From NCBI RefSeq assembly GCF_054482525.1, contig NZ_CM137006.1: DNA of 64,000 nt. One strand, 5' to 3'. Position 1 is the stretch's first letter. Every line of letters starts with the position of its first letter. A program made the position numbers. Shown here piece after piece: positions 36,001 through 39,000 of this stretch.

Positions 36001-39000
36001 TCAGCATGAGCATCAGACTAAAAAATCGTATCCGGAATAGACTCCCTGAAACGGGATTCTGCTATAACTGCGGAGAACCTGTTAAGACAGGATTGTTTTG
36101 TGATGGTGACTGTCGGGAAGATTATGAGAAACGTGAACGATTTGGAAAAATAAATACTGACAATGTTTAAAAGCAATACAATTACTGATATCTCTTTCAG
36201 ACTTCAGAATTAAAGAAAACTGCCCGAATGTTATCCGGAAAGCAGCTGTAATACCTCATTAACTGTTATCACAAATAAAACGCATACCTGTTCCATATGA
36301 AATTTGTCACGCCTGACTACATAACATTTATTATCCGGAGCACTGGGATGCCCGTGACACAGCATGCACAGAAATCCCCGTCGCAACAGCCTTTATCAGA
36401 AAACCATCTTTTTACCGGTCTATGGTGTTGCAGAGATATTTAATACTGACGCCGCGCATACCATTTTTCTCCATCGCATTGTAAAGATGCGCACATACCG
36501 TCTTCATGGTTATCCCCAGCCGGTCTGCCAGAAAGGTAAACCCGTAGTCATGGAAAACAACCCCGAAGACCACCACCATCTCTGTCCGGGTCAGTGGTCT
36601 TGCCGTATGTCCGAACAGCCACGCCCCACGGCGGATGGTTTGCCTGATATCTGTCAGGCATCTCACAGAGGAAACAGGAATGACAAGAAACCGACGCCCA
36701 CAGAACATAGAGTATGTAAGCCTTTCCAGATTACGGTCACAGAGAATCACATAACTGTCTTCGGGAAGTGTAGTGGTCAAGTAATACTGGCCACGGTTTT
36801 ACAGTAAAAATGGTACCTGTTCCCGGACTCTTCCGGTGTCAACCCACCGTTATAATGGTGAGGTCTGACACTGTTGTAGTAGTTCAATATGTAATCATTA
36901 ATTTGCTGCCGGGCCTCGTCCTTGTCGACGTAACCATTCGCTGGCACCCATTCTGTTTTCAGACTGCGGAAGAAGCGTTCCATTGGGCTATTATCCCAGC
37001 AGTTTCCCCGCCGACTGACACTTTGCTTTATTCTGTAACGCCAGAGAATTTGTTGATATTTCAGGCCTGTATACTGGCTTCCCTGGTCGCTATGGAACAT
37101 AACATCATGTGGTTGACCACGCGTCTCATAGGCCATCCGCAGGGCATCGCTTATCAGTGCAGTATCGGCATGTGCGGACAGACTCCAGCCGATAACCCTG
37201 CGGGCAAAAAGATCCATCACAACCGCCAGATAGCACCAGCAATTTCCGGCCCAGATATAGGTAATATCTCCACACCATACCTGGTCTGGCTCGGGGACAG
37301 CGAACTGGCGCCCGAGCAGATTCGGCAAGCAGGTATGCTCCTGACGGGCATTTTTGTACTGATGTTTTCCGGGCTGACAACTGCTCAGATTCAGATGTTT
37401 CATCAGCCGCCCGGCACGGTAACGGCTCATCGGGACGCCGTTTTGGGTCAGCATGTCAGCCAGCGTGCGCGCTCCCGCAGAGCCCCGGCTTTGGTTCCAC
37501 ACCCGGCGTATTTCACTGCACAACCTGACATGCACCGGATTCACCGTATCGCGTCGTTTTTGCCAGTACCGGTAACTGCTGCGGTGTATTCCCAGAGCAG
37601 AACACAGACTGACAACGGTGTGGCTGCCACTGAGTCTGGCAACTATCGTGAACCGTTCAGCGAGTCGGACATCAAGAGTGCAGTAGCCTTTTTTAATATC
37701 GTATTTTGTTCCTCCAGGCGGCGAACCTGCTTTTCCAGCTCGCGGATACGTTGCTGGTCTGGAGTAATCGGTGTGGCAGAGGGGGCAATCCCCTGGCGCT
37801 CTCGTCTGAGCTGACGTACCCATCTCTCAAGAGTGGTAGAGCCGACATTCATCGATTCACTGGCTTGTCGATATGAGTAGCCCTTATCAACAATCAGTTG
37901 CGCACATTCCAGTCTGAACTCGGGGGTGAAAGTACGTTTGGTTTTCTTGTTCATTAAGTCACCTGTTTTGTGTTGAGGTGAGAATATCACCTTTAATCAG
38001 GTGACCAAATTTACTGTGCCACTACATTCAGTTGCCTGATAGTGGCTGCTTCCGTATCCCATGCACCATCACTGATACCACCGGGACCCCGGATTTTATC
38101 CGGTCCCCGCGGACTGACAGGGTTTGTGACACCTGAGTCATATCCGATGTAAACTTCATTTTCACGGGTTGTACAGGAAAACTCCCCCTGTGCCATTGAG
38201 TTCTGATGTGTGCCCTTCGGCCACAACTCCCACCGTCACGGCACCAGTTGCATCTGACGCCGACCAACTGCTGAGAGCCATGCCGTTTCCGGCTTTGTCG
38301 GCAACGCATGCTGCAGTTCCCAGCGATGCGAACTGGTCTGGCATGCATTCACGAACCAACAGCAGTGGTGCTACGTCCGGATGCAATTCGCATGAGCCCC
38401 AACCGCGGTTGTAAGTTCAGCAGCCCGGGCCTCTGCTCCTGGCACAGTCGCATAAGTATTCGACACCGTGCGACACCATTACCTTCTGGATACGCCACGG
38501 ACCCGTCACCCTACGAAAACGCCGGAACACCGGCAATCAGCAAAGGCAGCAGTGATAAAAGACTGATATATTTCCTGTCATTATTTTTCATATTAATTTA
38601 ACTCCTGATTAACTGTTTTTTATTGATATGAGAAAGTAATAGTTGCAATAGCCTTCACACTTCCAGGTGTAGTTGCATCAGCAATTTTTATATAATTGGC
38701 TCTTAAATTGATATGTGGATTTACCTCTCCCCTGTAATCGGAGAAGTGCCATTGACTGCCATTTCCTTTCACAGGGGAGTCTTCACCATAGCTGATGGCA
38801 GTTACATCACTGTCTTTATATAGCCTGATGCCAAATCCTTTTGCAGTGGATTCACTGCTTAAGGTCAATATATCTGTTCTGTTCACTGGCTGTGATGCAT
38901 CTGTCAATGTAGCATAAACATCAGTTCCATCCGGGCATTGTAGGTGTATGTCAATTTTACCTCCCTGTATTTCTTTATACAAAGATGTGAACTGTGATTG

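Follow-up and report, generated by a model that had tools for sequence, protein, structure and literature searches.

An intact IS911-like element without target-site duplication at the place of an 892-bp deletion in an hly-cnf1-fimbriae pathogenicity island

The 64,000-nucleotide stretch of contig NZ_CM137006.1 (RefSeq assembly GCF_054482525.1) analysed here, which we call the window, contains at positions 36769–38026 an intact insertion sequence (IS) of the IS3 family. This IS911-like element is 1258 bp long, has its transposase genes on the minus strand, and lies between the remnants of two other genes with no target-site duplication around it. The ends of the element could be mapped by alignment and not by eye, because nine other copies with different flanks stop at the same two bases. 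The query for this mapping was the IS with 200 bp on each side, and homology stops at query positions 201 and 1458, equivalent to window positions 36769 and 38026, in many unrelated genomes. The nine copies that we fetched comprise seven at 99.1–99.6% identity and two of a sister element at 92.4% identity. The termini, TGTAGTGG...CCACTACA, form imperfect inverted repeats of the IS3 type, 5'-TG...CA-3'. The left inverted repeat (IRL), at the orfA end, occupies 38001–38026 on the minus strand as defined by alignment of the two ends and starts 5'-TGTAGTGGCACAGTAAATTTGGTCAC. The right inverted repeat (IRR), at the orfB end, occupies 36769–36794 on the plus strand, reads 5'-TGTAGTGGTCAAGTAATACTGGCCAC and has the same terminus in all nine other copies. 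IRL and IRR agree at 19 of 26 aligned positions, including all of the first 8.

The element contains two consecutive open reading frames (ORFs). The upstream ORF, orfA (37646–37954, minus strand), encodes a 103-residue helix-turn-helix protein (Pfam HTH_Tnp_1, E 5.6e-13). The downstream ORF, orfB (36780–37690, minus strand, with its stop codon at 36777–36779), overlaps orfA in the -1 frame and encodes the DDE catalytic part, with matches to Pfam rve (E 5.7e-29; 100.8 bits against a cutoff of 32.6), rve_3 and HTH_21. An A-AAA-AAG slippery heptamer for programmed -1 frameshifting from orfA to orfB lies at 37688–37694 on the minus strand. Its phase was checked: read from 37694 to 37688 it is in the X-XXY-YYZ phase, and in a sequence model of frameshifting a -1 slip at this site yields an uninterrupted OrfAB of 392 residues. 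This OrfAB matches the NCBIfam model NF033516, 'IS3 family transposase', with 369.7 bits (cutoff 160) over profile positions 1–367 of 369. A frameshift-stimulating RNA structure was sought 3' of the heptamer, where the fold is no better than that of shuffled sequences (z = -0.81). The 404-residue product annotated by the Prokaryotic Genome Annotation Pipeline (PGAP) has a verbatim match in NCBI, and 'IS3 family transposase, programmed frameshift', with the same frameshift junction, is its RefSeq label in strain ABU 83972 and in numerous other genomes. The identical 103-residue OrfA protein is found on more than 1000 contigs, ABU 83972 among them, and the IS at the window locus is present at 100% identity in more than 35 complete genomes. 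Each defining trait of the IS3 family that could be tested is present in this element.

Like IS911 and the IS3 group, the element is about 1.25 kb long with TG...CA ends and imperfect inverted repeats, carries a helix-turn-helix orfA and a DDE/rve orfB in the -1 frame with an A-AAA-AAG slippery site, and is accompanied by 3-bp duplications at insertions elsewhere. Just past the slippery site, the C-terminus of OrfA is presumably very like that of IS911. We take OrfA as a whole to be only roughly half identical to IS911 OrfA, and the element not to be IS911 itself. Neither an exact-sequence cluster look-up nor the plasmid records returned an ISfinder name; the labels found in the look-up were 'transposase', 'IS3 family transposase' and, once, 'IS602 transposase'. 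The sister element of 92% identity is far commoner in Escherichia coli and also occurs on Enterobacter and Klebsiella plasmids. Members of the IS3 family transpose by a copy-out-paste-in route, via a circular intermediate that carries a junction promoter.

To the left of the IS, directly downstream of orfB and on the same strand, is the 3' remnant of a LuxR-like gene (36412–36768, minus strand; tblastn, 91.5% identity). It consists of codons 41–158 and the stop codon and is cut by the IS end. RefSeq labels this left neighbour 'LuxR family transcriptional regulator, missing N-terminus'. The GerE domain in the LuxR-like protein scores 17.6–18.3 bits (E about 0.002–0.003), which is under the Pfam cutoff of 23.5, and the C-terminal match to BglJ is weak (19.2 bits versus 176). 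The term 'LuxR-like' hence denotes the RefSeq label together with weak similarity, and not a demonstrated membership. To the right of the IS, at 38027–38326 on the minus strand, is an internal remnant of a gene for a YadA-like trimeric autotransporter, which covers residues ~72–176 of 400 and is frameshifted (tblastn, two frames). Its DNA is 90% identical to annotated YadA-like genes, and the intact YadA-like gene of strain 2015C-3121 matches NF033478 under the cutoff of that model. A sequence-only reading of the locus had described an intact 1258-bp IS3-family element with terminal repeats and both transposase ORFs, set between a LuxR-type regulator that lacks its 5' end and a frameshifted remnant of a secreted protein. 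The nine-copy ends, NF033516 and the Pfam matches bear out the element. The regulator lacks codons 1–40 of 158, with the weak GerE match as a qualification of its type, and the secreted protein is the YadA-like one.

The same reading had pointed to differing triplets beside the element, and these are indeed AAG and TTC. With the ends fixed by alignment, the window copy is flanked by gggAAG on the left and TTCagt on the right, and still no 3-bp or 4-bp direct repeat appears, the one observation that by that same reading would have refuted it. A 3-bp (possibly 4-bp) duplication is present at six of the seven independent sites of the IS and its 92% sister. The duplicated triplet is TAT at the sister copy in ETEC4088, CTC at the sister copy in 18AR0366, GTA at a site adjoining sfaC in three strains, and CTG at a plasmid copy. 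Duplications of 3–4 bp, (G)ATG and (G)GGC, flank a copy within an integrase gene and a further locus in our set (L010), respectively. The seventh site, in strain Rb-50 (L008, 306–1563), has GAA on one side and GTA on the other and thus no duplication. This copy is 99.2% identical to the window element and lies amid two gene fragments, a truncated gene of the FaeA/PapI family and an IS110 fragment, and it probably represents another rearrangement associated with an IS.

We compared the locus with IS-free islands, using the left and right flanks (700 bp each) as queries against 5,426 complete E. coli genomes. Each flank was found in about 400 of these genomes, with ~320 matching at 95–99% identity, and islands that lack the IS, such as that of UTI89, occur in ~320 genomes. 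In UTI89 (locus L002), window 36250–36770 corresponds to 3450–3970 at 98.8% identity and window 38027–41000 to 4861–7833 at 99.5% identity. The two flanks have the same order and orientation as in the window, and between them lie 892 bp (L002 3969–4860) and no IS. The left junction, window 36768/36769, falls between UTI89 positions 3968 and 3969, and the right junction, window 38026/38027, between 4860 and 4861. The UTI89 bases TG that follow the left break are also the first two bases of the IS, and BLAST alone places the break 0–2 bp later. The window locus thus has an intact IS without a duplication, lacks exactly 892 bp of ancestral DNA and is collinear with the ancestral island on either side. 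An IR-like 7-mer, TGCCACT, occurs in the deleted DNA ~20 bp in from the right junction; we judged it to be a chance match.

The 892 bp hold codons 1–40 of the 158-residue LuxR-like ORF (L002 3612–4088, minus strand), the whole of a 68-residue ORF (L002 4151–4357) and the 3' part of the degenerate YadA-like gene. Strain 2015C-3121 has an independent, intact module that consists of a 158-residue LuxR-like protein, the 68-residue ORF and a 400-residue YadA-like trimeric autotransporter. When its proteins were used in tblastn searches, UTI89 was found to have the whole LuxR-like protein, the whole 68-residue protein, and residues 72–400 of the YadA-like protein as fragments in several frames. The window has only residues 41–158 of the LuxR-like protein (36768–36415), lacks the 68-residue protein, and retains residues ~72–176 of the YadA-like protein in two frames (38326–38027). 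Because the 892 bp are collinear with the independent and more intact module of 2015C-3121, the arrangement without the IS is the ancestral one, from which that of the window derives. The remnant in the islands of uropathogenic E. coli (UPEC) probably descends from an adhesin module of the 2015C-3121 kind. In the islands without the IS, frameshifts have already turned the YadA-like gene into a pseudogene, so that the IS event took only its 3' part. In 2015C-3121 (L013, 3808–8108) the order of genes is a helix-turn-helix regulator, the LuxR-like gene, the 68-residue ORF and the YadA-like gene, followed by a gene for a calcium-binding repeat protein.

We conclude with high confidence that the window arrangement reflects a deletion associated with the IS rather than a simple insertion. 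The sequence-only reading had preferred IS-mediated deletion or recombination to simple insertion and had proposed a comparison with islands that lack the IS. That comparison supports the preference: islands of the UTI89 type carry 892 extra bp exactly at the place of the IS, between collinear flanks. In this UPEC island lineage, an IS-associated deletion has removed the 5' part of the LuxR-like gene, the 68-residue ORF and the dead YadA-like remainder.

The IS and both window flanks are present at >=99.9% identity (that is, at least 99.9%) in 41 complete genomes. These carriers include ABU 83972, UPEC 26-1, O25:H1 and O2:K2:H1 strains, canine UPEC and the probiotic strain A0 34/86. A 42nd record with more than 80% coverage proved to be the sister-IS insertion in 18AR0366. 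The same IS junction (100% identity over the IS and 200 bp per side) lies beside the pap operon (papG-III) in ABU 83972 (L004) and beside the foc/sfa (F1C) operon in the window (24960–34700 compared) and in UPEC957C. Further to the left, the identity between the flanks of ABU 83972 and the window falls to 98.5%. It seems that recombination exchanged the fimbrial operon upstream and left the IS allele in place. As a stable marker specific to the lineage, the junction could serve for typing.

The LuxR-like gene has received related elements more than once. In ETEC4088 (L003), the 92.4% sister IS sits at UTI89 positions 4033–4035 in the opposite orientation, and in 18AR0366 (L005) it sits at 4001–4003 in the window orientation; both have the duplications given above (TAT and CTC), and neither insertion is accompanied by DNA loss. 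These sites are 67 and 35 bp, respectively, from the left junction of the window (L002 3968). Hence this IS lineage has made three independent insertions within 67 bp (L002 3968–4035), at codons 18, 29 and 40 of the LuxR-like gene. The segment may be a target hot spot, or it may reflect repeated selection for a knock-out. The two sister insertions show the form that a simple insertion takes at this locus, and they suggest that the window IS, too, first landed on the LuxR side.

On the route that we favour, an IS911-like element would have inserted in the LuxR-like gene after codon 40 and made the usual 3-bp duplication, here of AAG. A deletion anchored at the orfA-proximal IS end would then have removed the second AAG and the next 892 bp, driven either by transposase or by repair at the IS end, so that the IS came to abut ...TTCAGTTGCC. 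The 892-bp deletion explains why the window copy lacks a duplication and why the genes on both sides of it are truncated. We give this two-step route, insertion on the LuxR side and then adjacent deletion, a probability of roughly 0.55. It is favoured because the nearby insertions are all in the LuxR-like gene and because IS150 offers a precedent in the E. coli long-term evolution experiment. In that experiment, 14 of 83 IS events were IS150, another IS3-family element, beside deletions of 14 bp to 48.9 kb (PMC11708052). None of the IS150 deletion events had a duplication, and all were traced to an earlier insertion that was followed by an adjacent deletion (PMC11708052). The window resembles these cases in having an IS3-family element at a deletion edge without a target-site duplication. 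It differs from them in that intermediates were sampled over time there (PMC11708052), whereas here we infer the order of the two events, as well as the original end and adjacent deletion rather than recombination between copies. The IS-excision enhancer IEE is described as promoting deletions beside IS629, also of the IS3 family, in enterohaemorrhagic E. coli (EHEC) O157 (PMC9943667; bioRxiv 10.1101/2023.06.07.543989), and it is thus a further known origin of structures of this kind in E. coli. The deletions in those accounts likewise adjoin copy-out-paste-in IS elements, and IEE is described there mainly in EHEC and enterotoxigenic E. coli (ETEC); its involvement at the window junction is only a possibility.

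Several results weigh against the two-step route. We searched for its intermediate with a 600-nt chimera in which the right end of the IS, AAG and UTI89 DNA were joined to UTI89 DNA, TTC and the left end of the IS. No intermediate with the IS at either junction and the 892 bp kept was present among the 5,426 complete E. coli genomes. The chimeric query gave no match above 70% coverage, the best being a sister IS elsewhere in 18AR0366. Variant deletion end-points were also absent, as none of the 41 carriers had one flank only when queried with the IS and 200 bp per side. Furthermore, the hot-spot argument rests on three events only, and the data do not separate adjacent deletion from recombination of two direct copies, nor do they prove which junction is the original one.

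Recombination of this kind would have involved two direct copies, a first with an AAG duplication in the LuxR-like gene and a second with a TTC duplication in the YadA-like remnant, either in one island or in two island variants. Homologous recombination would have deleted one copy along with the 892 bp, so that the remaining IS kept half of each duplication. It predicts the exact AAG–IS–TTC junctions and the 892-bp loss. The region does draw this IS lineage, with its three insertions in 67 bp, and island recombination is frequent, the same junction being found beside pap in ABU 83972 and beside foc/sfa in the window. On the other hand, it needs two insertions within 900 bp and a recombination event, and none of the 5,426 genomes has the IS at the right-hand site or twice at this locus. 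Furthermore, in the one systematic data set considered, every IS3-family deletion that lacked a duplication at a newly inserted copy was an adjacent deletion (PMC11708052). We regard the two-copy route as less probable than the favoured one, but as a serious rival to it. The mirror image of the favoured route, a first insertion at the right-hand site in the YadA-like remnant (TTC) with a deletion that began at the orfB-proximal end and extended to the left as far as the LuxR-like gene, is symmetrical with it and fits the junction sequences equally well. The independent insertions nearby are, however, all in the LuxR-like gene and none is near the right junction, which makes this direction unlikely.

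A single step could also be envisaged, in which a double-strand break or a deletion intermediate took up the IS without staggered cuts made by transposase. Such a capture would leave no duplication and would place the IS exactly at the centre of the deletion, as observed, and it has been proposed for IS5 and IS481 events (PMC11708052). Since the IS3-family events in the same study were all two-step (PMC11708052) and nothing in the sequence calls for capture, we consider it very improbable. The remaining explanations, a simple insertion whose duplication is hidden by mis-mapped ends or point mutations, or a rearrangement with a decayed IS fragment at 22942–23328, have next to no probability. 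Nine copies define the ends, the two flanking triplets differ at every position, and the ancestral 892 bp have been lost. The decayed fragment is only 79% identical to the IS, and the flanks of the IS are in the ancestral order and orientation. In ABU 83972, the 36.8 kb that precede the identical IS junction (L004) contain nothing that matches the fragment, and a search of a second ABU 83972 locus (L001) gave no match apart from the intact IS itself. A hidden duplication and an involvement of the decayed copy, as recombination partner or otherwise, are both refuted by the end mapping and by the comparisons with UTI89 and ABU 83972. As judged from these alignments, the decayed fragment almost certainly played no part in the event, because the flanks are ancestral and 79% identity is poor for homologous recombination.

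An IS without a duplication at a deletion border is a textbook phenomenon, and the window case is routine and of an already known kind. It is a clean natural case in which relatives that lack the IS reveal the history of an IS3-family element without a duplication. Its significance beyond careful annotation is small, and the 67-bp cluster of insertions is the only feature perhaps worth a second look.

An ORF with a TTG start, 36412–36780, reaches 12 nt into the IS. A sigma-70 scan showed no hybrid outward promoter at the junction of the IS and the LuxR-like remnant; it returned two sites only, both in 38093–38155, and this is no more than in shuffled sequences. With no promoter-like site at the junction, the TTG-started ORF is unsupported as a gene, and expression of the truncated regulator (codons 41–158, the DNA-binding half) from the IS is speculation. 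A wider proposal would be that the first ~40 codons of the LuxR-like gene, which lies beside ExPEC fimbrial operons, are a true hot spot for this IS lineage, through a DNA feature recognised by the transposase or through selection for knock-out of a regulator located between such operons, and that the remnant might be expressed by read-through from the IS and affect fimbrial cross-talk. We consider this combination improbable.

The decayed fragment at 22942–23328 (minus strand) is the 5' part, or orfA end, of a different IS3-family element and corresponds to IS positions 862–1258. A decayed related copy in the same orientation had been placed at 22950–23328 from the sequence alone; the copy is real and so oriented, and its start is at 22942. 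Only a truncated orfA is kept (ORF 22955–23167). The C-terminal fragment of an IS629/IS1203-like orfB (23213–23614, plus strand; …SNKGSQYVSLAYMQRLKEAGLL…) abuts this IS911-like fragment head to head. Together they form a small IS graveyard, which is annotated as two frameshifted transposase pseudogenes in UPEC957C (L014).

The window is a typical hly-cnf1-fimbriae pathogenicity island, and the island of UPEC957C is 99.7% identical to window 16571–58231. Near the left flank of the IS, at window ~36250–36252, islands of the UTI89 type have an extra 457 bp (L002 2993–3449) that are missing from the window. In this segment, which is a second small indel between the island variants, the annotation shows fragments of a transposase domain and of an endonuclease/exonuclease/phosphatase protein; the microhomology at the break is only ~2 bp. 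Directly to the right of the YadA-like remnant is an intact chaperone-usher fimbrial cluster (38620–42335, minus strand), which encodes a putative adhesin of 359 residues and an usher of 879 residues, with the chaperone and the major subunit further on. The cluster is kept in both IS-bearing and IS-free islands and was untouched by the IS event. In the right part of the window, the alignment with UPEC957C places cnf1 and the start of the alpha-haemolysin operon (hlyD) at ~54047–57091 and beyond 58037, and RTX calcium-binding repeats lie at 62187–62594. Fragments of IS110 (ISEc45), IS66 and IS3 elements are found between the cnf1/hly genes and the fimbrial cluster.

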